Below are positions 2,076 through 55,871 of a stretch of 64,000 bases of DNA, in pieces. The DNA comes from Mobula hypostoma (taxonomy: Eukaryota). The position numbers were made by a program, and so were the translations under genes. Numbering within the stretch: position 1 is the stretch's first letter; each line of letters begins with the position of its first letter. The DNA lies in the NCBI RefSeq assembly GCF_963921235.1, contig NC_086107.1, positions 100,876,001-100,940,000 on the forward strand, written 5' to 3'. The notes beneath the pieces are model-generated. The model was not told where the DNA came from and ran no database searches. It was given only the letters and a program-made list of their open reading frames with translations.

Positions 2076-2492
2076 ATCTGAATTGATCCACTTAATCAAG
2101 CCAGAATACTGCAGAGCACTCCGTAGGCCTTCTCATTAACATCATCATCATCAGGGCCGTGCCCAGTTTGAGCTTTGACTGCCATGGCCCACACACTCCT
2201 GTTTCGGGTCAAGTGGATCAATTCACTAGTATTAATTTCCAGTTCTCTGGCTGCTGTCTCCATCATCATTTGTCTTTGTCTTCCTCTTGCTTTCTTCCCT
2301 TCAATCTTTCCCATAATTACCGTGCATTCTAACTCCTCTTTCCTGATGACATGTCCAATGAAGTTACGTTGCCGTTTCATCATCTCATACATTTCTCTTT
2401 TTGTGCTTGCTCTGTTCATGACTTCCTTGTTAGATATTCGTTTCGTCCATGATATTCTTTGCATCCTCCTCAATAACCACATCTTTGCTGCT

Positions 2493-3523
2493 TCAAGCAA
2501 CACACATCAAAGTTGCTGGTGAACGCAGCAGGCCAGGCAGCATCTATAGGAAGAGGTACAGTCGACGTTTCGGGCCGAGACCCTTCGGCAGGACTAACTG
2601 AAGGAAGAGCTAGTAAGAGCTTTGAAAATGGGAGGGGGAGATCCGAAATGATAGGAGAAGACAGGAGGGGGAGGGATGGGGCCAAGAGCTGGACAGGTGA
2701 TTGGCAAAAGGGATATGAGATCATGGGACAGGAGGCCCAGGGAGAAAGAAAGGGGGAGCGGAGCCCAGAGGATGGGCAAGGGGTATAGTGAGAGGGACAG
2801 AGGGACAAAAAGAATGTATTTATATAAATAAATAACGGATGGGGTACGAGGGGGCGGTGGGGCATTAGCGGAAGTTTGAGAAGTCAATGTTCATGCCATC
2901 AGGTTGGAGACTACCCAGACGGAATATAAGGTGTTCCTCCAACCTGAGTGTGGCTTCATCTTTATAGTAGAGGAGGCCGTGGATAGACATATCAGAATGG
3001 GAATGGGACGTGGAATTAAAATGTATGGCCACTGGGAGATCCTGCTTTCTCTGGCGGAGAGATAATGGCATGAACATTGACTTCTCAAGCTTCCACTAAT
3101 GCCCCACCTCCCCCTCGTACCCCATCCGTTATTTATTTATATACACACATTCTTTCTCTCTCTCTCCTTTTTCTCCCTCTGTCCCTCTCACTATACCCCT
3201 TGCCCATCCTCTGGGTTTTCCCCCTGTCCCCCTTTTCATTCTCCCTGGGCCTCCTGTCCCATGATCCTCTCATATCCTTTTTGCCAATCAACTGTCCAGC
3301 TCTTGGCTCCATCCCTCCCCGCCTGTCTTCTATCATTTTGGATCTCCCCCTCCCCCTTCCACTTTCAAATCTCTTACTAGCTCTTCTTTCAGTTAGTCCT
3401 GATGAAGGGTCTCGGCCCGAAACGTCGACTGTACCTCTTCCTAGAGATGCTGCTTGGCCTGCTGCATTCACCAGCAACTTTGATGTGTGTTGCTTGAATT
3501 TCCAGCATCTGCAGAATTCCTCG
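2493..3523. mobile_element. Penelope-like element (PLE) remnant with two inverted arms (GIY-YIG C-terminus + pLTR), nested in the RTE
   Basis: ORF 2865..3077 (PVAIHFNSTSHSHSDMSIHGLLY...LEEHLIFRLGSLQPDGMNIDFSNFR); arms ~2493-3062 (-) and ~3065-3523 (+); TSD TCTTTGCTGCT at 2482-2492 and 3524-3534. Confidence 0.85.
3394..3431 (+). ncRNA. Minimal type I hammerhead ribozyme, intact core
   Basis: UAGUC-CUGAUGA-A-GGGU(CUCG)GCCC-GAAA-C-GUC^GACUG; stem I UAGUC/GACUG; predicted cleavage after 3426. Confidence 0.8.
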
Positions 3524-5531
3524 TCTTTGCTGCTACAATTCGTTTCCTCATGTTACTAGATATTGTCCAACATTCTGATCCATATAACATAACTGGATAA
3601 ACGTAACATTTCAGTACTCTGAGGCGGGTTGTCATGTCTAGTTTAGTATTGGTCAGTATACTCTTCATTCTTGTAAAGGTGTCTTTTGCCATCCCTATTC
3701 TTCTTTTGATGTCCATGTCACACCTGCCATCTGATGTCACCCAGCTTCCTAAATAGCAAAAGTTCTGTACTTGTTTTATGTCTTCCCCGTTTATTTTCAG
3801 CCTGCAGATAGGATTCTCCTTTTTGGATATCACCATACATTCTGTCTTTTTGCAATTGATAGATAGACTCATTTTTGCACTTTCTTCAACAACTATATCA
3901 ATTAAGTTTTGTATTTCTTCCTCCGTACTTGCAAATAACACAGTGTCATCTGCATATCTGAAATTATTGATGTTTTCACTGCTAACTTTGATTCCCAAGA
4001 TGTCTCTTATATTTTGTAATATTGTTTCGCTGTACACATTAAACAAATCGGGGAGAAAACACACCCTTTTCTAACGCCTCTCTTGATTTTAATTAACTGA
4101 CTTCTCCATCTGTTCTTACAGCGGCAGTTTGTTCCCAGTACAGATTTCTGATTAGGTGGAGGTTTTTCGAATCTAGATCTAGAGTTTCTGTAATATTTCA
4201 AATAACTTATTGTGCTTCACTTTATCAAATGCTTTTGTGTAGTCGATAAAACAAACAATCTTTTTGCACGTGAATAGCTCGTTCTGATAGTATCCTTAAC
4301 ATCAATATCACGTTTCTTGTACCTTTGTCTTTCACAAAACCACATTGTTCTTTATCTATTTCAGCTTGTATCTTACTTTTAGCTCTTGTCATCAAAATTC
4401 TTAGAAGTATCTTACTGATATGACTCATTAAACTATGGTCCTATGTAATTCACATTCTTTTGCTCCAGGTTTCTTAGGAAGAGTGATAAATCCTGGTTTT
4501 ACAATTCCATAATTTTCAAGGACAATAATTAGTTCTATTACTAATTCATCAGGACCTGCTGCCTTTCCTTTCTTCATCTTATTTGTTGCATTACGAACTT
4601 CAGCTTTTAAAATACTTGGACTTTCAATGTTCTTCTTAATTCCTGGTTCTTTGCCTCGATCGTCTTCAAACAATTCCTGAATATACTCAGTCCATCTGTT
4701 CATAATCTCATCTTTTTCCATCATAATGGTACCGCCCTTTGCTTTCAAACATCCACCTGAAGAACAGAGGAGCTTTTTACCAGTTATATTCTAGATTTGT
4801 TATGTACCGTTTTTCGATCAGTAATAGGGATTCTTTCTAGTTGCTCACATTCCTGGTTTAACCATTCTTCTTTGGCTTTTTGATATAAGCGTTTAATTTT
4901 TTTATCTAAGAACTTATATTCCATAGGATTTGCTTTCTTCCGTCTCCTTTCTTCCATTAGATTTTTGATTTCATCTGTCATCCATTTATTCTTTGTACTT
5001 TTTTCTTTTTTAGGAATCATTGACTGTTGATTCTACCAAGGCATCCATCAGAGAGTTAAACTTAATTTCTACATGACTGCTATCATCTTCAACAGATTCT
5101 ATTTCTAGACTTTGAAATCTATTCCTTACTTCAATTGTAAATTTTTGTCTTAAGTTTTCTTCTTTAATTAATTGCGAGTAGTCAAAGCCTACTGGTCCTG
5201 GGTATGACTCTAAACTGCAACCGGTGATGAGGCTCTGATTTGGGACTTTCAGAGCTTTGGGGAAAGTGGAGTTACCCCTCAATCATTCATTGCTCCCAGG
5301 GCCACTGTGACCCGGAACGGTAGCACCTGCAAGGGTTCCTGCTCAGGATACGAGCAAAGGCCAACGGCAGATCCGGCAGGTTCAGTAACTGAACTTACGA
5401 CGGAGAAGGCAGATGAGCTACGACCTCAAGTGACAACGGCTATAGTACAGGCGGATGAACACTTGGGAAGAGAAATGGCGATTTCTTCAGTTCGCCCAAC
5501 GGAAGGCAATAGCAAACTACCGTTGTTAGAT

Positions 5532-5760
5532 TAAAAACGCAAACAAACAGGAATTCTGCAGATGCTGGAAATTCAAGCAATACACATCAAAGTTGCTGGT
5601 GAATGCAGCAGGCCAGGCAGCATCTCTAGGAAGAGGTACAGTCGACGTTTCAGGCCGAGACCCTTCGTCAGGACTAACTGAAGGAAGAGTGAGGACTGTA
5701 CCTCTTCCTAGAGATGCTGCCTGGCCTGCTGCGTTCACCAGCAACTTTGATGTGTGTTAT
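5532..5760. mobile_element. Short palindromic PLE pLTR insertion
   Basis: Inverted arms ~5532-5690 (-) and 5694-5758 (+); TSD CGTTGTTAGAT at 5521-5531 and 5761-5771. Confidence 0.85.
5639..5676 (-). ncRNA. Minimal type I hammerhead ribozyme, intact core
   Basis: Reverse complement reads UAGUC CUGACGA A GGGU CUCG GCCU GAAA C GUC GACUG. Confidence 0.72.
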
Positions 5761-7109
5761 CGTTGTTAGATACTAGGTTTCCTAGAATCTATTTGCTAAG
5801 AAAACCATGGTCAAACTCACAAAATGTATCGCACAACAACAGCGTCAAGAGGATCTTCAAGACAATTCTGAAGGTGCTTCGCTCGGTAGAGTTGATTCTG
5901 GGCAGCAGCGGATCCCCGACCGTCATCAAACTACTGCTCATAAAATAGGCCTTCTGCAAGTTAGGAAATAATGACCGCGCTTCAGAAATGGTAGATGCAA
6001 ATGTTTAATAGACGGACAGAACCCCAAGGAGGGAAACATTTTTCCTGACCACATAAAGGGCTATTTGGGTTACAGAATCTAGGGTGGATCTCCCCGCAGT
6101 CCTCTCGGTTGCATTTCACATTTACCCTCTAGTAATCAATTCTCTCTGGTATATTTACCCACCACTCATCGGCACTTCGTGGCAAGTTAAATGATGAATG
6201 CCCTCAGCTTGAATGGTCGACTCCCCCCCGCCCCCCCAATGTTGTTGAGTTCCTTCAGCATTTTCTGTATGTTGCTGAAGATTTCCAGCATCTGCAGACT
6301 CTGTGTTTGAACCTAACTTGCATGTCTAGAGTACCTGAAGTAAACGTGCGCATTCACAGGAGGATTGCTGAATGAGTGGTTGAAGCTTGGTTGCTCACTG
6401 TAGATCAAGACCATGTATCTTAGCCATGGAGGGCCATTGACCAATGGGGTTAACACGGAAAGGTGCCCACTAGTGTGGGTCAGATGGGCAGAATGACTTA
6501 TTTCCTTGCTGCATGATTCGAATAACGTGCAATCTTCACAGTTGATAGAATGGCCAGTGTACTGACTGGGGTTGGTGACTTTTCATCATGGCAGATTTGG
6601 TTACGGTTATTCAGCTGAATGCGAGTGGAAATATGAATGGCCATTGACTGGTGATTTGCTTCTTGTGGATGTACAAACGTAACTTGGCATTATCAGCTGA
6701 AATCTTCATCTAAAGGTGACCAAAAAATTCAAATTCCTGAGGTAAAGTGACAACGATGGACAGCAGCTTTTGACTGACTTGAGGTATCAAGGAACTTTGG
6801 TGAAACTAAAATGAATAGGAATTGAAAACTCCATACCTCGTGCAACGATTACCGTGGCTGCTGAAGGATCGGTCACTGATCCCCTGGAGTTTCCTCATCC
6901 TGACCATCCTCTGTTGCCTCATATTGTATGGGTCTTGTTTCATGAGCACACACTTGTTCAAAAGTTGCAAATTGTTTTGGAAACATCTCTTCTGACCTTA
7001 TGATGGAAGGCAGATATTTAATTATTTGGACATTGACACATGTGTTGAATGTTCTCTGTCTTCCCTCTCCATATTTTTCTGATCATCATCTTGCCACCTC
7101 TCCCCCACA

Positions 7110-7523: not shown

Positions 7524-8078
7524 AATGGACATTGAACCCATGAACACTACCTCGCTATAAAAATATATATGTGTGTCTCTGTGTGTTTACTGGTTTATTT
7601 ATATTTTAATATGTATTGCAGTGTACTGTTGTCGCATAACAACAAATTTCACGATATATGACAGTGATATTAAATTTGATTCTGATTACTTTCACAGATG
7701 AACCCGGCACCCATCTTTGTTTTCTCAGTAAGACACTTGCCACTCCTCCCCTAATTTCCTCACACTTGTTGCAACCTTAATCTGATCTAAAAGCACTAAC
7801 TTCCAAATTTCCACATTCCACAGTGGCGAGAGGCTGTTGAGAAATGACATTTGTGCTGGCCTTTTCAAGGTCCTTGTCAGTGATGAAATGTCCAAGCCTC
7901 AGCTGTATGAAGGGTCTCGGCCCGGAGAATCGACTGTTTACTCTTCTCCATAGATGCTGCTTGGCCTGCTAGGCTGCTTCAGATTTTTGTGCGTGTACAG
8001 GTGCTCTAACATGATTGTAAATTAGTTTCAATTTCTTGACCCTTTTTGACAGTTAGCTTTTGCTATTTTGTATTGAAG

Positions 8079-18762: not shown

Positions 18763-19013
18763 ATAAATATACGATTTGCCACTACGACATCTGCTATCAT
18801 AACGCTGTCAGTTTTGACGAATGGTACGCAACTGAAACTTTCCAGAAGCTATCACTACTTGCTATAAACACAAGAAATTCTGCAGACACATAAATATAAA
18901 ATTTGCCACTATGACATTTGCTATCATAATACTGTCAGTTTTGACGAATGGTACACACCTGAAATTTTCCAGAAACTATTACTACTTGCTATAAACACAA
19001 GAAATTCTGCAGA
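18763..19013. repeat. Diverged tandem duplication, period 127 bp
   Basis: Units start ATAAATAT at 18763 and 18890 and both end ...AGAAATTCTGCAGA. Confidence 0.9.
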
Positions 19014-19127
19014 TGCTGGAAATCCAATGCAACACACACAAAACCCTGGATGAACTCAGCAAGTCAGACAGCACGCATGGGAATGAACAAACAGTTGATG
19101 TTTCGGGCCGAGACCCTTCTTCTGGAC
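18991..19127 (-). mobile_element. Single-arm PLE pLTR remnant with degenerate hammerhead
   Basis: TSD TTACTACTTGCT at 18979-18990 and 19128-19139. Confidence 0.8.
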
Positions 19128-20439
19128 TTACTACTTGCTGCTCTCTCTCTTTATTCTCCTGCTGGGAATCCGCTAGTAGAGGACCAATAGGCCTCTATTC
19201 AATTACACTGCTATATAATCTTAGAGAGCAGATAATTCCACCTCCCCATCACAAAGACGTGGGTGGTTGGTTAATTAGCCACTTTATGTGTAAGTGGTAG
19301 AATCTGGGGGGAGTGAATGGGAACGTGAGGGAATAAAATAGGATTAGTGTAAATAGATACTTGACAAAGGGCCTGTTTCTGTGCTGTGTGACTCTATAAA
19401 TACTGTTCAGTCAGCAGCTCTAGGAGGAGTTTCAGTTCTAGGTTCTGTGTGTACTTGTACATCAGCAACTTGCATTTTATTAACACATATCACATAGTAA
19501 AAGGTGCAAGGCATTTCCCAGAAGTGACATCAAACAAAATCTGATATTTTGAGGAGTTAGGGTGAATGACTCCAGGCATGAAGGGATACGGGGAGAAGGC
19601 TGGAGACTGGGGCTGAGAGGAAAAATGGATCAGCCATGATGAAATGGAGCAGACTCGATGGGCCGAATGGCCTAATTCTGCTCCTGTGTCTTATGGTCTT
19701 ATTGTTTGTTCGTTATGTGCCGTGTCATATGACGTTGGCGAGCATGGTATTTCCATGATCATGATTGTTCTTGGCAAATTGTTCTACAAAAGTGGTTTGC
19801 CATTGCCACCTTCTAGGCAGTGTCTTTATTAGACGGGTAACCCCAGCAAATATCAATACTCTTCGGAGATAAAACCATAAGACATAGGAGCAGAATTAGG
19901 CCATCTGGCCCTTCGAGTCTGCTCCGCCATTCAATCATGGCTGATCCTTTTTTTTCTCCTCCTCCCATGGCTTCACATGACTCTGATCGGGGCCTAAGCA
20001 GGTGCTACACCTTGCCTATAGGTGACCTGCAGACTAGCAGAGGGAAGGAATGCCTTACATCTCCTTTAGTAGGGATGTATCTCTACACTGCTACCTTTAT
20101 GGTCTTAAAATCTACCACTTTGTCCAGGCTACCTTTATAAGATAATATCAAATTTTGATAACTTGCAAATTGCCCCTATCTGTTACTCCAGAGCTGTTAT
20201 TTCAACACAATTTATATTTTTATGCATTTTAATCTGCCTCAAATTTCAATAGGAAATAAACTGAATCTGAGCAGCTACTTCACTCTTCAATCTCATAACT
20301 GAGGAATTTACACTGTTGGAGGTATTCCTTTACTCTTCATTGCCACTGGAGACCAAGTGTGGGGGTTACTGAAATTGTCTTTGTGCTACAAATGTAAAGG
20401 AAGCATTCTTAAGGTTTAGAAAGCAAAAATCAGACTGGG

Positions 20440-25520: not shown

Positions 25521-26684
25521 GTCTTAGCGGTGCATTGAAGAGTTTGATTTGCTAGGAAGCAGTAGGTTGGAGATCTGGTGATCACTGAGGGATTGTGATC
25601 TGACTACTTTTCCCAAGCTAGTAAATACAAGTAATGGAAGTTATTTTAGTATTGCTGATGTGAGGTCAGGTGACCTGCAGCTTTCAATGTACATGATCAA
25701 AAATTTGCAGAATGAGAGCAAAAGCCCACTCACTTCACATCCACTGTAGCTGGTCAGCTGCTCATTCAGTTAGATCATGGCTGAATACATCTTAATCTCA
25801 ACGTCTTACTTTCATGCTTCCATAAATCTTAATACCCTTGACTGATTAATAACCTCAATGCTGTATGTCTAGATTGACCATTATCCACCACCAACCCTCC
25901 AGCTTCTCACAACATGTAGAAATGTGGGAGTTCCAGATACCTGCACTAGTCCTCGCATTGTTTCCTGAATCACCCTGAATAAACTGTTTCCAATCCCAGA
26001 TTATTTTTTTTACTGGCTTGTTCTAAAATTTCCCATCAGAAGAAATAGCTTCTCTGTTCACTCTATCAATGCACTTAATCACATTAAACACTTCAGTTAG
26101 TTTATCACGTAATCCTCTGGATTCAAGGCAAGTAAATCATAGAATAGTTATGCTGTAAAAGCAGTCTGTGCCAATTCCTAATAGAGCAATCCCATCAGAT
26201 CCCTTCCCCTGTTTGTTTCCCATAGATTGACAAATTATTCTGCTCTGAAAGCATGTATTAATTCTAATCACCATCTCTACAAAGTGAATTCCATAACTGA
26301 ACTACCAAATTAATTATTTTCTTCCTGCATCCCTGGCATTCTTTTCTCGGTTTTAAATCTTTGATTATGGTTTTGGTCCACTTAGTAATGGAGATTGGCT
26401 TCCTTTTATCTATCTTCTCTTAAGCCACTCATGGTCAGGCACATCTCTACAAATCTCTTCTTGGCCATCTTTCCTCCAAGGGAAATCTCATTGCATTAAA
26501 CTAAGAGCAACACAAACAAAATGCTGGAGGAAAGCAGGTCAGGCAGCATCTACAGAGAGGAATAAACAGTCAGCGTTTCCGGCTGAGATCCTTAATCAGG
26601 ACTGGTTTCCAGTATCTGCAGAATTCTGAACTAAATAATTCTAATTTGAGCAATTGTTTGGCCTTTCCCATTATTATTCTAAAC

Positions 26685-26768: not shown

Positions 26769-27183
26769 GTCTAAACCTAACGATCCACTGACCGACAGAC
26801 CAGTAAGTCCAACTCTTTCAACAATCAGATCCAATAATGCCTCCTTCAGAAAGTTCTCACCTTTTAATGTTGTTCTAATCAATATCGGGGTAACTAAACT
26901 CCTTCTCTGTGATCACCACACTCCATTTCTTGTAAATTTCTGTAATTTGCCTGCCGATCTCTCCTCACAATTTTGTGGTCTATAGAAAACCCTTAGTAGT
27001 TCCATTCTTGGTTAACTTTAACCATATGGATTCTATACTTGACCTCTCAAACACCCCTATTCCCCAGGATTAATTAACTTCCTGGAGATAGTCTCACCTA
27101 ACATTTTCTCTTCTCTTTCTTTTCAAAATCTTAGTCTTTCTTTTATTCTATTTTCATTGTTCATGCTATCATTACCTTTATTT

Positions 27184-27298
27184 AAGCAACACACATAAAA
27201 GTTGCTGGTGAACGCAGCAGGCCAGGCAGCATCTCTAGGAAGAGGTACAGTCGACGTTTTGGGCCGACACCCTTCGTCAGGGCATTAATGACCCTTTG
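27184..27298 (-). mobile_element. Single-arm PLE pLTR remnant
   Basis: Same subfamily as 5532-5760; TSD TCATTA(C/A)CTTTATTT at 27169-27183 and 27299-27313; hammerhead GAAA changed to AAAA. Confidence 0.75.
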
Positions 27299-30535: not shown

Positions 30536-30740
30536 CACAAACAACAGGAATTCTGCAGATGCTGGAAATTCAAGCAACACACATAAAAATTGCTGGTGAA
30601 CGCAGCAGGCCAGGCAGCATCTCTAGGAAGAGGTGCAGTCGACGTTTCAGGCCTGACGAAGGGTCTCGGCCCGAAACGTCGACTGTACCTCTTCCTAGAG
30701 ATGCTGCCTGGCCTGCTGCGTTCACCAGCAACTTTTATGT
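30536..30740. mobile_element. Short palindromic PLE pLTR insertion with central hammerhead
   Basis: Inverted arms meet at ~30652; TSD ATATTGTTATCTT at 30523-30535 and 30741-30753. Confidence 0.88.
30648..30685 (+). ncRNA. Minimal hammerhead ribozyme, core intact, one stem I mismatch
   Basis: CAGGC CUGACGA A GGGU CUCG GCCC GAAA C GUC^GACUG; predicted cleavage after 30680. Confidence 0.62.
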
Positions 30741-33339
30741 ATATTGTTATCTTGATGGTTTTTGTGGAACCTTGTTGGCTTCTGTTTTCCAAATTACAAT
30801 GGAGATCATGTTTTAAAAATACTGAATTGGCAGCTGTGCACTAGGACATCTTAAATTATAACACTAGTATTTTTTAAAAATTTATTTTTGAGATACAGCA
30901 TGGAACAGGCTCTTCCAGCCCTGCAGCCCACTGATTTAACCCGTGCCTGATCACGGGACAATTTACAGTGATCAATTAACCTACCAACTAGTATGTTTTT
31001 GCATCATGGGAGGAAACCCATGCCCACGTGGGAAGGAACGTACAAACTTACTTAGAGAAGACACTGGAATTGAGCTCCGAATTCCAACGCCCTGAACTGT
31101 AACAGTGCCATGCTAACCACTATGCTACTTTAGTAAACAGGGGTGTAATCTTCTGTCCCAGAGGAAGGTTTGTACTTCCCATTTGCAAATCAGAATAAAA
31201 ACAAAAAAATGCTGGCAATATTCAGCAGGCCAGACTGCATCTGTGGGAAGAGCAACAGTAAACATTTCAGATGAAAGCCCCTTCGTCAGATCTGGGAAGG
31301 AGACAACATCTTGATAAGCTGCAGGGAGGATTGGGGAGGGGAGATGTCTGACAGAGTAAAACCAGGGGTAAATATCCCTCCTTCCTCCCTCAGCATCCTT
31401 GCAAGTTTCTTTTCTCCTTCTCAATTTTGTTGACGTGCCTTCCACTTGAAATGTTAATTCTATTTCTCTTCCCACAGATATAGCCTGATTTGCTATTTCC
31501 AGAACTTAAAGTTTTAATTTTAACTTGCCATTCGATGTAGTGTAAAGAAATGATTTATAATAACTAATTTGTTGTCTAACATTGATTATAGAGAGCTGTT
31601 ACAGTCTAGAGAGGCTAAATGTTGAATCAGCCCTTTAGGCTGAATTCAGAACATTCACAACTTTCAGGATCTTGATCATATTTTATATTCACTTCATTTG
31701 AATGCATCTTAAGAAGGTGCATTGGCAAAGATTGGATACAGAGGGCAGAAAGACAAAAAAGAGAACAAGGAGTTCCACGATTATGCTTTGAGAAATCCTT
31801 TGCCAAGTTTCTTGAATCTGGTGGAATGCTCATTTGGCAATTGAATATGGAGTTTAGCAACATTATCAGTTTCACAGTTGGAAAAGGTCAAAACTTTTGG
31901 AATGGAATGGTAAGAAGGGTAAAAAGTGAACAAGACAAAGTGGAACACTGTAGAGCTGGAAATTGTCCAGTGTTAAATACATGGTGCACAATTGGAAATG
32001 TGTTTTCTGTGAGGGTCTGCTGCTGTTAGATGTGTTGTGTACAACAGATCTTTCAAGCTCAATGTGCCTTTCCTTGGTTTGCACGGCTAATGCTGGTTGG
32101 TTATGGGAACTGGGACATCATGGATTGGATCCTGGTATTTGGGAGATGGGTGGTGGTGTGCAAGGATGAACAGTGAGGTAAGGGGACCTACCTGCAGACT
32201 GTTCCAGAGACTCTTCCTTGATCACTTACTCTGTCCTGCATTGTCATTAACAAGTGTTTCCTGAATGGCATAATTGTACCTGTTTCAACCGCTTCCTCTG
32301 ACAACTCATTTCATATACTTTCCACTGTGTGTGAAAAGGCCCCTCTTAAATCTTGCCTGTCACACTAAATCTGTGCCCCCTAGTTTTGGATTCCCCTATC
32401 CTGGGAAAAAGCCTGCTACCATACACCTTATCTATGCCTCTTAAAATTTTAAACATTTCTATAAGGTCACCCCTTATTGTACATTCCAACAAATAATGAC
32501 GTCGCCTGGCTAAACTTTCCCTACAATTCAAGCCTTCTAGTCATGGCAACTTCCTCACGAGTTCTTTTCTGCACTGCTTTCCAGTTTAGCTGTGCCCTAG
32601 CCATAACAAAGTGACTAAAACTGTGGACAGTAATAATAAAATGTACTGCCAGGTGCTTTGATGTGTGACGACTATCAACACCATTTACACTAATCTTAGT
32701 TCGTCCTCTACATTTCTCAACAACTCCCACACAGATTCTATTATTCATTTGCACTCTAAGGCCACACAGAACATGAGTTGAAGAGTCATGTTCTGTAGTG
32801 AATCTGTAGCTTGTGGAATCCGTTCAGACTCGGCCTGATGGCTGCAGGGTAATAATTGTTACGTGCTGTCTGACCACGTGGCTTTTCTTCAGATGCTCAG
32901 CTTTCCTCCCACGTCCCCAAGTCGTACGAGTTGGCGAGTTAATTGGCCGCAGTGAATTGCCCCCAATATGTAGGTGAGAGGTAGAATCTGGTGGGCGGGA
33001 GAAGTACCGATTAAGTGGAATTAGTGAGGGTCGTTAACGGTGAGCACAAAAAGCGCGGGAGGGTTTGCTTCCTGTGAGTCAGAAATCTGATGAAAGGCCA
33101 TTTCGTTGAAATTGTTAACTCTTGCTCCTCTGGTATAAGGAGCAGTCGAACATTTCCAGTACACTGCGTAATGTAAATTCTGTAGCAGCATTTTGCCATT
33201 TAGGCGTTAGCGCTCGCGTCCTAGCAAAAGTGCAGAAAGTTATCTGATTTCATTGCGAGATCTTACTTTGCACAGATTGCCCGCTAGTTTTGCTCAACAC
33301 GGTGATCTCACTGCGAAACTACTTCGGCCTGGGCTGTGA

Positions 33340-37969: not shown

Positions 37970-38699
37970 GTTTAAATAGTTTGGAATGTTACCCTGTTGA
38001 AAATGGTTTACTGATGTAAGGTCTCAACCCAAAACTTTGACTGTCCCAGTACCTTCTGCAGTTTGTTTTCCTCTTGCTTCAGATTACAACATCTGTAGCC
38101 TTTTGTGTCTGCTCTCTGAAATGTTACCCATTGTGCCATGAGACAACTGTATGACAAAAGGTGCATGTCGAGTATTTTTCCTATGTCTTCTGAATAAAGT
38201 ATTGTGTTATATAATAATGGGTGGAAATTGGTATGTGGTGGGAATGAGAACGAAACCAGTGTAACACGCTGAACCTGGGTCTTTGACAATAGGTTTCAAG
38301 TCTGGCCCACACTGATCAGAGGCACTCTCCTGATTTATAAAGGATATGAATGAAGTGAACTTGATGCAAGTTGTGTTGGGCTCCCATCAGACATGGCTAT
38401 TTGGGGTGCCACGATAGCGTCGTGGTTAGCATGACACTTTACAGCACAGGTGACCTGGGTTCAATTCCTGCCGCTGACTGTAAGGAGTTTGTACGTTCTC
38501 CCCGTGACCTCGTGGGTTTCCTCCCACAATCTAAAGACGTAGCAGTGTGTTGACCAAATGATCACTGAAAATTGTCCTGTGACCAAGCTAGGATTAAATC
38601 GGGGGGATTGCTGGGCGTCATGGCTTGAAGGGCCAGAAGGGCCTATTCTGTGCTGTATCTCAATAAAATAAAATTAAATTAAAAAATATAAATTGAGAG

Positions 38700-39530: not shown

Positions 39531-40059
39531 AAACTCTTTCAGCAAGGGGCCTGCACAAACACCGTGTGTTAGCTGGCTTCCCTCTGTTGTATAGTCCTGT
39601 GATTCAATGAAATGGATATAGGGCAGTTCTGCATGGTAAAAATGGATAAAATCTCATGTCAGGAGATTTTCCTTTAGGTTGCGGGATATTGTTTGAGGCT
39701 ATAGAGCAGGGGTCCCCAGACCACTCGGTTAACGGTAGGAGTTCATGCACCCCAGCAGAGCATTGCTAATGTACATCCAACTATTTTTTGGAATTTAGCT
39801 TACTCCAAGAAATGGTACTGTAGAGGGAAGGAAGTAAATGACTAACTTATTTAAATATACAGTCATTTGTGGTGCACAAGCACACGTATGGGCACAAAGG
39901 CGCACACATGCATAAACATTTGCACACACGTTGCTGGAGGACCTCAGCAGGTCAGGCAGCATCCGTGGAGGGGAAAAAAGGGTGTGGACTGTTTATTCCC
40001 CTCCATGGGTGCTGCCTCGCTTGCTGAGTTCTTCCAGCATTTTGTATGCGATGCCCAAA

Positions 40060-41850: not shown

Positions 41851-43633
41851 AGGTACTGATGAAGAGTATCGGCCGGAAATGTCAGCTGCTTATTCCCGTC
41901 CATAGATGCTGCCTGGCCTGCTGAGCCCCTCCAGCAGATTGTGTGTATTGCTGCAGATTTCCAGCATCTGCAGTATTTCTTGTGTCTAGGTTTTGATGAA
42001 ATTTGCTATCACTTTCAGTGCACCAGGGCAACCTTTGGTTAATTGAGGGAAAAGTCAAGGACTGAAACCTGGTGCAGAGCACAGTCTGTTTAGCCGCAGT
42101 GATTCCTGTCTTTCCGTACTGCCTGTAAAATCCTCCAAATCCACTGAAGATGGATTTTCAATGTTCATGGATGGATGGATGGATTTCATTTCTTCAGCAG
42201 GTCAACATCACCAAAACCGGGTTTGTTGGGCAGGCCACATCGCTTTCATACTTGCCACCAGACTCCATTAAAGTTCCATTATATAGCTGGAGATTACCAG
42301 GCAGACAGAGGACGTTGTTCACAACCCCCTAGAAAAAAAAAGGGAATGCAACATCTGCACTGACACTAAGGAACTTCTGGCCTGTGGTCATTCAAAGAAG
42401 GAGCTTTCAACTTGGAGCCATGTGTCAAGAGCGGGCAGAAGCCTTGTGTACATATCTCAAGGAGTGCACCACCTTCGAAGCTACAAACTTGTCCAACCTG
42501 TCTTGACGCCTCCTCTTCCCTCTGGCGCTCTGTAACTCCCACAATGGCATCATCATTTGTCTCAGAGCTCACAGAATCTGAGGGGAAGGAGGTTCTCCTC
42601 CATTCCAAGGTACTGCGCCTTGTGAAAACAATAAAATTTCAGTACAAAAGCTGCATTGAGGCAAAGGGTTTGAGGAGTCAACTACCCCTCGTGCATTGGT
42701 ATTGGATTATTATTAACTCGTGTACTAAGGACCTCGACCTTGTCATGTTCTGGAGGCTTGCATGCCTCAACGACCCTGAGAAATATGGTGGCTGGAGTCA
42801 GGACTTTGTGCTTTGGCTCTTTGTAGGCTCACCCATGCCAATCAGGTCAAAGGGTAGATGACAGAGGAAGAGTGGTCCATCAGTCCTCCAGGTTTAGGGG
42901 TTCAGCTCAAGGCTAGCAAACCTGACTGGTCAAACAAAATTGTTATGGACACAGCAATGGAGAATCCTTCTACATCTGCGTGGTCAAGGATAGACAGATG
43001 GAGGACCTTCATTGTTGCCCTAAATGCCAGCAGGTGTAATGGACAACTCATATGTACTAAGATGCTGTGGATAATTAGTTTTGTATGCCATCCATAAAGG
43101 TCATTTCAAAGCGTAACCACTTTGAGGTAGTAAAGTTGAAGTTGAGTTCATTGTCCTATACGCAAGTACATGCAGCAGCCTCACAGGTAGAACGTGTCAT
43201 ATAAGCAACATTCACAAGAAAAAGCGTGCATTAACCATAAATTATTCACAATTTTTACAAGAATGACACAATCTAGGTATGAGGAATGAAGTATACTTTA
43301 GTGCAAAGTGATCAAAGTAGTCATCATGTTGCTAAGTTGTAGTGATTAGGGTTTGCTGGTTGGTTTATGAACTGAATGGTTGATGGGAAGTAGCTGTTCA
43401 AGAACCTGGAAGTATGGGACTTTAGGCTTCTGTACCTCTTGCCTGATGGTAGCTGCGAGAAAATGGCATAATCTGGATAGTGGAGAGCTTTGATGATAGA
43501 TCTTTTGTAGACTCAGTGGTTTCTGAAGTACAAAACAAAAACAATGACAATGCAGAATAGTGTTACAGCTATAGTTCTTAGAAGTTAGATTGAAAAGAGG
43601 AGAACAATTGTAATGTATGTAATGAATAGACCT

Positions 43634-55122: not shown

Positions 55123-55871
55123 ACACTCACAACACGCTGGAGGAACTCAGCAGGTCGGGCAGCATCCGTGGAAACGATCAGTTGATGTTTCAGGCCGGAA
55201 CCCTTCATCAGGACTGTAGAGGGAAGAGGCAGAGGCCCTATAAAGAAGGTGGGGGGAGGGTGGGAAGGAGAAGGCTGGTAGGTTCCAGGTGAAAAACCAG
55301 TAAGGGGAAAGATAAAGGGGTTGGGAAGGGGAGGCAGGGAGGTGATAGGCAGGAAAGGTGAAGAAGGAATAGGGGAAAACACAATGGGTAGTAGAAGGAG
55401 GCGGAACCATGAGGGAGGTGATAGGCAGCTGGGGGAGGGGGCAGAGTGAAATAGGGATAAGGGAAGGGAGGGGGAGGGAATTACTAGAAGTTGGAGAATT
55501 CTATGTTCCTACCAAGGGGCTGGAGACTACCTAGACGGTATATGAGGTGTTGCTCCTCCAACCTGAGTTTAGCCTCATCATGGCAGTAGAGGATGCCATG
55601 TATGGACATATCCAAATGGGAACGTGAAGCAGAGCTGAAGTGGGTGACAACTGGGAGATCCTGTCTGTTGTGGCGGACGGAGCGGAGGTGCTTGACGAAG
55701 CAGTCCCCCAATCTGCATCGAGTTTCACCGACGTAGAGGAGGCCGCACCGGGAGAACGGGATGATTGATACGTTGACTGATCGTTTCCATTGATGTTGCC
55801 CGACCTGCTGCGTTCCTCCAGCGTGTTGTGAGTATTGCTTTGACCCCAGCATCTGCTGAGTATTTTGTGTT
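55123..55871. mobile_element. PLE insertion: long - arm with GIY-YIG endonuclease and short inverted + arm
   Basis: ORF 55484..55852 RCGLLYVGETRCRLGDCFVKHLRSV...HFSSASRSH...LEEQHLIYRLGSLQPLGRNIEFSNF; TSD CACCTCCTATGGGA at 55109-55122 and 55872-55885. Confidence 0.9.

Follow-up and report, generated by a model that had tools for sequence, protein, structure and literature searches.

The 64,000-nt stretch of the Mobula hypostoma genome analysed here (contig NC_086107.1; hereafter, the window) contains, at positions 5532–5760, one insertion of a Penelope-like element (PLE), formed by two inverted arms of the same repeat and flanked by perfect target duplications of 11 bp. This repeat, which represents the 3′ non-coding end of the element, contains a predicted hammerhead ribozyme, and we show that the 5′ ends of copies of this element cluster on the ribozyme throughout the genome. 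Repeat positions are numbered following the minus-strand arm, where position 1 corresponds to window nucleotide 5693 and position 159 to window nucleotide 5535. The insertion comprises the following features:

5521–5531, no strand: left target-site duplication, CGTTGTTAGAT, with the identical 11-mer at 5761–5771
5532–5693, minus strand: arm 1, the non-coding 3′ terminus of the element from position 1 to ca. 162, with 98.6–100 % identity to family copies
5644–5671, minus strand: predicted hammerhead core, CTGACGA-helix II-GAAACGTC, from a pattern match and from reading the sequence
5693–5694, no strand: inner joint, arm 1 position 1 against arm 2 position 51, blunt, with zero shared bases
5694–5758, plus strand: arm 2, inverted, positions 51–115, with 96.9–98.5 % identity and an outer end of the short class
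5761–5771, no strand: right target-site duplication, CGTTGTTAGAT, read from the sequence

Arm 1 holds the complete minimal hammerhead and its outer end, reaching position 148 or further, belongs to the long ("tail") class. Arm 2 opens with GACTGTACC at 5694, corresponding to position 51, the first base past the GUC after which the ribozyme is predicted to cut, as a preliminary description of this DNA had noticed; the GAG preceding it, which had been taken for unrelated sequence, is really the 5′ end of the opposite arm, being the complement of CTC at positions 1–3. In 25 of the 29 other loci shown, position 1 of the family is preceded by ...aaatctctta, whereas the continuation of the inverted arm would be GACGTTTC; since both differ, the joint between 5693 and 5694 shares no base and is blunt. 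Positions 51–115 are present in both arms and, therefore, the insertion required two templates, or one template copied twice. The inverted arms also constitute a long hairpin (window 5596–5741) and, because of this two-armed structure, show sub-threshold matches to microRNA-precursor models of Rfam, the best of them to mir-3926 (40.6 bits, with a gathering score of 82).

Long copies of the family contain, upstream of the repeat, an open reading frame (ORF) with YIDD (in the ORFs of loci L016 and L002) and LLYIGET...R..EH motifs, the latter recognized by eye as GIY-YIG-like. The longest copy sampled carries only the C-terminal part of the reverse transcriptase (RT), and the RT fragments gave no RT match in Pfam. 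PF01541, the GIY-YIG family of Pfam, aligned to residues 262–295 of a 359-aa ORF (E = 0.0014) with a score of 19.3 bits, short of the cut-off of 22.6. In the protein atlas, the nearest clusters are of eukaryotic proteins and combine HTH_animal with GIY-YIG(/RVT_1) (score 0.96, 195 shared features), with RVT_1 occurring in 13 % of the members in one of the six Atlas cluster sets shown. Additionally, the family displays the hallmarks of PLEs, namely 5′-truncated copies, an adjacent inverted 5′-truncated arm, an optional tail of 30–40 nt, and target duplications. The element is of a known kind and behaves as recent PLE biochemistry predicts. Just upstream of the truncated PLE of locus L016 there is an unrelated high-copy repeat (L051:160–570; 5,642 candidates, ca. 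190 nt at 90–95 % identity).

The predicted hammerhead is laid out as CUGACGA at positions 23–29, an unpaired A and helix II at 30–42, and GAAACGUC at 43–50, with the predicted cut between positions 50 and 51, that is, between window nucleotides 5644 and 5643 of the minus strand. The CUGANGA...GAAA...UH core is thus present as CTGACGA, GAAA and GTC from 5671 to 5644 of that strand. As read from the sequence, helix I would pair AGUC (positions 19–22; AGTC at 5672–5675) with GACU (positions 51–54; GACT at 5640–5643), helix II has the form GGG..CCY, and ACGU occupies positions 46–49. These features correspond to a predicted ribozyme of the minimal, helix-III-less kind of PLEs, with a palindrome in place of helix III; minimal type I hammerheads of metazoan PLEs were described by Cervera and de la Peña (2014; PMC4209133, of which this and the later statements concern a part). 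The hammerhead pattern had three matches in the window, with none expected, and belongs to the repeated terminal region of the element, because nearly all of the 62,205 genome matches of the word downstream of it have the core before them. The Rfam hammerhead models showed no match at the gathering score across the whole window, and none at E ≤ 10 on 5480–5800, as is expected for a motif without helix III; no HDV-like (hepatitis delta virus-like) match was found in Rfam either.

Several other properties of the repeat were observed around the ribozyme. The minimum free energy fold (loci L002, L005, and L030) prefers a competing hairpin at positions 4–34, pairing CUCUUC (5–10) with GAAGGG (28–33) and UCAG (13–16) with CUGA (23–26), which hides the catalytic CUGA box and leaves positions 17–22 as its loop; a recurrent inverted joint, GGCCGAGACCCTTC/CTTCAG (here and below, a slash marks the joint), exploits the complementarity of this hairpin. 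Upstream of helix I (window 5675–5700, minus strand; positions −3 to 20) there is TACTAAC or TACTCAC, followed by a pyrimidine run and by AG at 15–16 and 19–20, an array resembling a branch point, a polypyrimidine tract and a 3′ splice site that ends at the edge of the ribozyme. A second abundant subfamily occurs genome-wide, with CUGAUGA and other upstream sequence (TTCCTTTCCAGTCC...); in its copies the AUG opens a frame that is closed after 31 codons, near position 120.

We examined the distribution of 5′ ends by pattern searches of the whole genome (3.48 Gb in 200 contigs, with more than 60,000 PLE copies), each yielding a total count, a control with the reversed pattern (0–43 rows in each search) and a list of the first 100 matches. 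Break rates were estimated with an exact-word anchor preceded by 19 free bases, considering as a break the loss of the match to the family within the free stretch. Among the matches listed, breaks amounted to 3–4 of 100 for positions −10 to 8 (76,008 rows genome-wide), to 23 of 98 loci for positions 9–27 (120,112 rows), to 7 of 100 for positions 32–50 (62,205 rows), and to 5 of 100 for positions 52–70 (133,930 rows). The 5′ half of the ribozyme is, then, a hot region, with ca. 1.2 % breaks per position versus 0.2–0.4 % elsewhere. The clustering of 5′ breakpoints on the hammerhead, which had been proposed from the window, is real and strong, and goes beyond chance on a genome-wide scale: 23 of 98 loci in 9–27 versus 3–7 of 100 in the neighbouring stretches, among the matches listed.

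A filtered search for copies unlike the family at positions 10–13 retrieved 18,830 rows. About 65 of the 100 matches listed were real breaks, and about 28 belonged to the second subfamily, which differs upstream only, and were set aside. In these matches, the breaks started at positions 14 (2 copies), 15 (2), 16 (3), 17 (2), 18 (4), 19 (14), 20 (18), 21 (7), 22 (4), and 23 (8). Counts for the whole genome, obtained with a single design and restricted to the young CTGACGA form, were 1,318 rows for starts at 15–16, 6,394 for 19–20 and 1,993 for 23–24. The dominant peak is therefore sharp and lies at positions 19–20, the first paired bases of helix I and the upstream edge of the ribozyme; allowing for the filter, roughly one in eight young copies starts there. 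Most of these starts have unrelated sequence upstream, and the triplets preceding them were near random, except for AGG (13 of the 100 matches listed), which results from a direct duplication through GTC, and GAA (15 of 100). An unbiased sample, consisting of the window plus 200 kb of random genome stretches, contained 24 arm starts, of which six were at positions 14–28, four at 29–50, one at 51 and three at 52–72, the remaining ones being situated at −20 to 13 (three) or further upstream (seven).

Two other kinds of joint were found in the course of these searches. Loci L010, L024, L029, and L037, and one further locus, share a recurrent inverted joint with both arms ending between −12 and −2, around ctctta, which forms, upstream of the ribozyme, a small hot spot of its own. 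Tandem arrays occur at L047:8008–8312, with units of positions 19–68 followed by an inversion inside helix II, and near 61.74 Mb of G000:C1, with a 31-nt unit (positions 51–81) repeated at least three times.

The window holds further arms with starts on or near the ribozyme, of which the following were delimited:

39987–40050, plus strand: older-subfamily arm that opens, behind 11 nt of filler, with GACTG (position 51), the opposite arm lying at ca. 39930–39975
55776–55860, plus strand: arm whose start, at position 46 (ACGTTGACTG), precedes the cut by 5 nt
18994–19132, minus strand: single-armed copy whose 5′ end, position 20 (GTCC...), lies directly against the target duplication AGCAAGTAGTAA
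43642–43758, no strand: two-armed copy between duplications GTAATGAATAGACCT, with arm starts at 59/60 and 19
30540–30746, no strand: two-armed copy with arm starts at 38 and 22 and the joint ...GTTTCAGG/CCTGACGA (shared CC/CCTGA)
27180–27281, minus strand: arm comprising positions 22 to ca. 120 and accompanied by 17 nt of filler, flanked by duplications AAATAAAG(T/G)TAATGA

The first two agree with the preliminary description, which had placed the start of the arm at 39987 on GACTG and that of the arm at about 55770 some 5 nt upstream of the cut. The same description had listed numerous copies as beginning at stem I or at the CUGA core, and this holds for most of them: the start is position 19 for the arms at 26603 and 43684, position 20 for those at 41853 and 56655, as well as for copy 18994–19132 (start at 19132), which exemplifies the main hot spot, and position 22 for those at 27281, 30649, and 35657. 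The arm at 7909 starts at position 28, and the start of the arm at 38011 is ambiguous. Not every inner joint falls in the ribozyme, as indicated by a larger two-armed copy at window 2492–3521, whose arms start at about −476 and −310 and are joined at 3062/3065.

Starts at the hammerhead could be an artefact, being no more than alignment ends of diverged subfamilies that have kept the ribozyme but not the sequence upstream of it. Four old copies of the window (55215, 47218, 35017, and 31289), none of them listed in the preliminary description, are of this nature; we discarded them as breaks because they are only BLAST alignment ends, the copy's own pyrimidine-rich subfamily sequence continuing upstream. 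The second subfamily (TTCCTTTCCAGTCCTGATGA) likewise makes up the ca. 28 of 100 matches listed that were set aside in the filtered search, and most rows of the listing for position 19. Once its rows are removed, however, what is left shows inverted arms, target duplications, or upstream sequences that bear no relation to one another, and the excess persists in the bins limited to the young CTGACGA form, with 6,394 rows versus 1,318 and 1,993, so that an artefactual origin of the clustering is very unlikely.

The preliminary description attributed the breakpoints either to reverse transcription running off self-cleaved RNA or to its stalling at the ribozyme in folded form. The expected end would be position 51 for a cleaved template and a site near 55–58 for a stalled RT, and a main peak at 19–20 thus weakens both inferences. 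A stall caused by the folded ribozyme, or by a complex of it with protein, would make of the breakpoints a record of folding in vivo, and it agrees with breaks about five times denser in positions 9–27 than in the flanking stretches, with a mild excess at 55–58, on the 3′ side of the ribozyme, and at 45, and with joints that use the complementarity of helix I or helix II, such as CAGGAC/TG and GAGACCC/YGAAAC. Moreover, the hammerhead of the PLE Poseidon from Anolis carolinensis is protein-assisted, with the binding site of the protein immediately downstream in the RNA (Frangieh et al., 2024; PMC11167929, to a part of which all our statements on Anolis refer). Nevertheless, an RT arriving from the 3′ side should pause before helix I (ca. 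55–58) or helix II, not after copying the whole motif, and the dominant stop is at the far 5′ edge; only 5 of 100 matches listed break in the unfiltered stretch 52–70, and helix I has only 4–5 base pairs. Exact excision of the core across helix I (loss of 23–50, TTAGTC/GACTG) was considered as a footprint of folding, but it was found in only 17 copies genome-wide and is too rare. We consequently consider stalling to be an improbable cause of the clustering, even if the mild enrichment on the 3′ side is in its favour.

The peak at 19–20 might also mark the edge of the ribozyme as the place where the template RNA has a fixed 5′ end, produced either by the start of transcription or by processing; in that case, short RNAs extending from ca. 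19 as far as the RT start sites would be copied over their whole length. In support of this, the cluster is tight (19, 20 and 21, with 14, 18 and 7 of the matches listed), the upstream sequences are mostly unrelated, position 20 adjoins the target duplication in copy 18994–19132, the array of units 19–68 at L047:8008–8312 suggests repeated jumps from an end, and the same peak appears in the CUGAUGA subfamily. TTAGTCC and, in the second subfamily, TCCAGTCC fit what we take to be the initiator motif, with +1 at A19. An end generated by processing would be in agreement with the signal resembling a 3′ splice site (TACTAAC, pyrimidine run, AG at 19–20), and the 5′ edge of helix I is where the intron of Penelope terminates in Drosophila virilis (PMC4209133), an element with its promoter and start site in the pLTR (PMC2377424, in part). 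RNA-seq coverage of the Anolis element is also raised at the pLTR-ORF junction, the site of its hammerhead (PMC11167929). Against a fixed end, the D. virilis start site is not at helix I but ca. 121 nt upstream of it (46 nt plus a 75-nt intron), and no copies with a shared upstream exon were seen. The base before A19 in young rows was A in five, G in five and C in two of the matches listed, without the extra G that a cap would leave; its absence among these matches neither supports nor excludes a transcription start. A lariat would predict a stop 1 nt past the branch-point-like A, at position 5, which was not found: simple starts among the matches listed numbered 6 at position 1, 5–6 at position 2, 10–12 at position 3, 6–7 at position 4, 1–2 at position 5 and 3 at position 6. 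Splicing of host exons into AG/T21 was likewise discarded as unnecessary, since copy 18994–19132 has its target duplication against position 20. On balance, a fixed RNA end appears to us a possible, if doubtful, origin of the main peak.

Starts around the cut site were counted genome-wide with patterns made of three non-family bases followed by the family sequence from a given position to a fixed anchor, and amounted to 84 rows at position 50, 532 at 51, 195 at 52 and 177 at 53. The sharp peak predicted after GUC thus exists locally; however, it is smaller than that at 19–20 and, although real, is mostly explained by microhomology or small indels. The commonest upstream triplets in the 100 position-51 starts listed were CAG (16), CCT (11), AGA (10), CGA (9), ACA (7), and AGT (6), and these six recurrent classes, which use the microhomology of GAC (51–53), comprise ca. 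59 of the 100 matches listed, versus about 22 expected for random flanks. We read the class CAG/GAC, the complement of GUCCUG, as a helix I snap-back that is ambiguous between 51 and 54; CCT/GAC, in which CCUGAC is joined to UGUACC, as a loss of the core between two GAC words; CGA/GAC as a duplication or a switch on GTC (33–35); and the ACA and AGT classes as near-palindromes. Small indels or duplications (AAT/CAT as alternative triplets, CGT, ACT, TCG, TGG) account for about 18 further matches of the 100 listed, and about 23 have an unremarkable upstream triplet, equivalent to ca. 120 rows genome-wide, versus ca. 70–80 comparable rows at each of positions 52 and 53 (estimated by eye). Microhomology therefore explains the peak nearly, but not wholly. 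Independent filtered listings had 11 and 13 loci starting at 50/51, versus ca. 3 per neighbouring position, together with modes of equal or larger size at 45, at 55–58 and, from an inversion inside the helix II hairpin, at 40 (all among the matches listed), and none of 100 unfiltered matches listed broke exactly at 51.

These data bear on whether the hammerhead self-cleaves in vivo and RT runs off at G51, in which case the starts at 51, including that at 5694, would record ribozyme activity. The raw peak at 51 (532 rows versus 84, 195 and 177), the blunt joint at 5693–5694, the arm at 39987 and the tandem array of the 31-nt unit that starts at 51 are all compatible with it, as is a joint in which the 3′ end of the element is fused head-to-tail to position 49–50. 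There are 44 loci, on many contigs, with perfect 30-nt palindromes centred on the cut; these, too, could be expected from run-off, but they sit on a sequence, GTC/GAC, that is by nature a 6-bp palindrome. The observed GAC-mediated switches are also just those to which a cDNA terminating in ...GTC, as left by run-off, would be prone. Conversely, four loci among 100 matches listed contain palindromes with both arms starting at position 48, so that both keep GTC, and a template cleaved between 50 and 51 cannot give them; the main hot spot lies 30 nt upstream of the cut; the ca. 23 of 100 blunt starts left at 51 are to be compared with the background at 52 and 53; and unfiltered copies yielded no break exactly at 51 among the 100 listed. 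In Anolis, mutants of the PLE hammerhead had no effect on insertion in vitro, and no RNA-seq reads were found to begin or end at the cut (PMC11167929). What remains is a small residue of blunt starts at 51, of the order of one copy in a thousand. Run-off on self-cleaved RNA would be at most a minor contributor, concerning well under 1 % of copies and possibly near zero, although this share is only loosely bounded, since a cDNA end at the cleaved site would favour GAC switches. As an explanation of the starts at 51 in general, it is unlikely. In summary, the observation made in the preliminary description was confirmed, and its interpretation was only partly supported.

The anatomy of the copies agrees with an ordinary mechanism of insertion. 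The outer ends of 66 arms in the sampled sequences fall into two classes, 25 at position 126 or less (mostly 111–126) and 39 at 145 or more, with only 2 at 127–144, and two-armed copies mostly carry one outer end of each class. The two classes and the two-armed anatomy match published PLE biochemistry, in which both strands are primed and there are two internal start sites. We thus favour, as probable, a reading in which the insertion at 5532–5760 is an ordinary two-armed PLE insertion and the stops of cDNA synthesis are distributed non-uniformly, dominated by the peak at 19–20, with 51 as a minor site. Both strands of a staggered target cut would prime reverse transcription, each cDNA would begin at one of two internal start sites near the 3′ end of the element (outer ends at about 112–126 or at 145 and beyond), and the two convergent cDNAs would be joined at their respective stops, which in this insertion are positions 1 and 51. 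The stop at 19–20 would indicate that the 5′ edge of the ribozyme provides a defined end or stop, either the fixed 5′ terminus of the template RNA or a release of the RT, or of its ribonucleoprotein, past the ribozyme, perhaps after the complex has crossed the ribozyme and its own binding region. Many of the other joints in the ribozyme would be template switches or snap-backs on its own short complementary or repeated words; the words used at the joints are the strands of helix I, the helix II hairpin, GTC at 20–22, 33–35 and 48–50, GAC at 25–27 and 51–53, and the GTCGAC palindrome. The blunt joint of the window may or may not stem from run-off on self-cleaved RNA.

Several points weigh against this reading. 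The joint 5693–5694 has no microhomology, and the template-switch class leaves it unexplained. The microhomology of GAC (51–53) is compatible with a prior run-off, and the share of cleavage could thus exceed the blunt residue. No full-length PLE copy was recovered, that of L016 being truncated ca. 1.75 kb upstream. Finally, rows were classed by eye on the 100 matches listed for each search, all from the first contigs, and the counts may err by a few; a chance match of the flanking base moves some starts by 1–2 nt; and exact-word anchors catch young copies only.

Alternatively, the ribozyme module might set two discrete 5′ ends of the template in vivo, a major one at A19/G20, from transcription or processing, and a rare one at G51, from self-cleavage. 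We hold this to be rather unlikely; if true, the blunt joints, the tandem arrays from 51 and 19, the head-to-tail joint, and the palindromes centred on the cut would be fossils of run-off followed by template jumping, and the first in vivo trace of the activity of a PLE hammerhead.

The closest known systems are PLEs of the Penelope/Poseidon type. Like Poseidon of A. carolinensis, the element described here has an ORF ending in a putative GIY-YIG-like domain, a hammerhead in the repeated 3′/5′ region, 5′-truncated insertions, often with an adjacent inverted arm, and two classes of outer ends ca. 30–40 nt apart (PMC11167929). In that system, the only PLE studied biochemically, the protein cuts and extends both target strands, reverse transcription starts at two adjacent internal sites whose spacing of 30–40 nt corresponds to the "tail", and unprocessed RNA is the main substrate in vitro. 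A minor role, at most, of self-cleaved templates fits the lack of effect of the Anolis hammerhead mutants and the lack of RNA-seq ends at the cut (PMC11167929). The ORF of Poseidon starts inside the hammerhead, whereas the young copies in M. hypostoma have CUGACGA, without AUG, and the frame opened by CUGAUGA closes after 31 codons. The hot spot of 5′ ends at helix I found here is not described for Poseidon in the part of the study considered, and the corresponding part of the work on metazoan PLE hammerheads includes neither evidence of cleavage in vivo nor an analysis of insertion breakpoints (PMC4209133), which are analysed here.

Inverted arms and ribozymes at RNA ends have counterparts in other retrotransposons. 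In L1, 5′ inversion reportedly occurs by twin priming, in which two cDNAs from both target strands are joined internally. The inverted 5′ segment within one pair of target duplications is common to both cases; however, the segments of L1 are said to be adjacent parts of one RNA, and the PLE arms overlap, with 51–115 in both. HDV-like ribozymes are said to be located at the 5′ end of R2 and of other non-LTR (long terminal repeat) elements. As in R2, a self-cleaving ribozyme in the transcript of the element could define the 5′ end of the RNA and, hence, that of new copies. Nevertheless, HDV-like ribozymes cut at their own 5′ edge and a type I hammerhead cuts near its 3′ side, and the main peak of the element is at the 5′ edge, where the hammerhead does not cut.

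The function of the PLE hammerhead has been considered "still unclear" (PMC8557442). We found no earlier report in the literature of breakpoints relative to it, and supplementary data, such as Fig. S2 of PMC11167929, might show such pile-ups. The new point is a sharp and abundant hot spot of 5′ ends at the upstream edge of the hammerhead. Insertion breakpoints constitute a very large, free record of where cDNA synthesis ends in vivo, and this record does not support a frequent use of self-cleaved templates.

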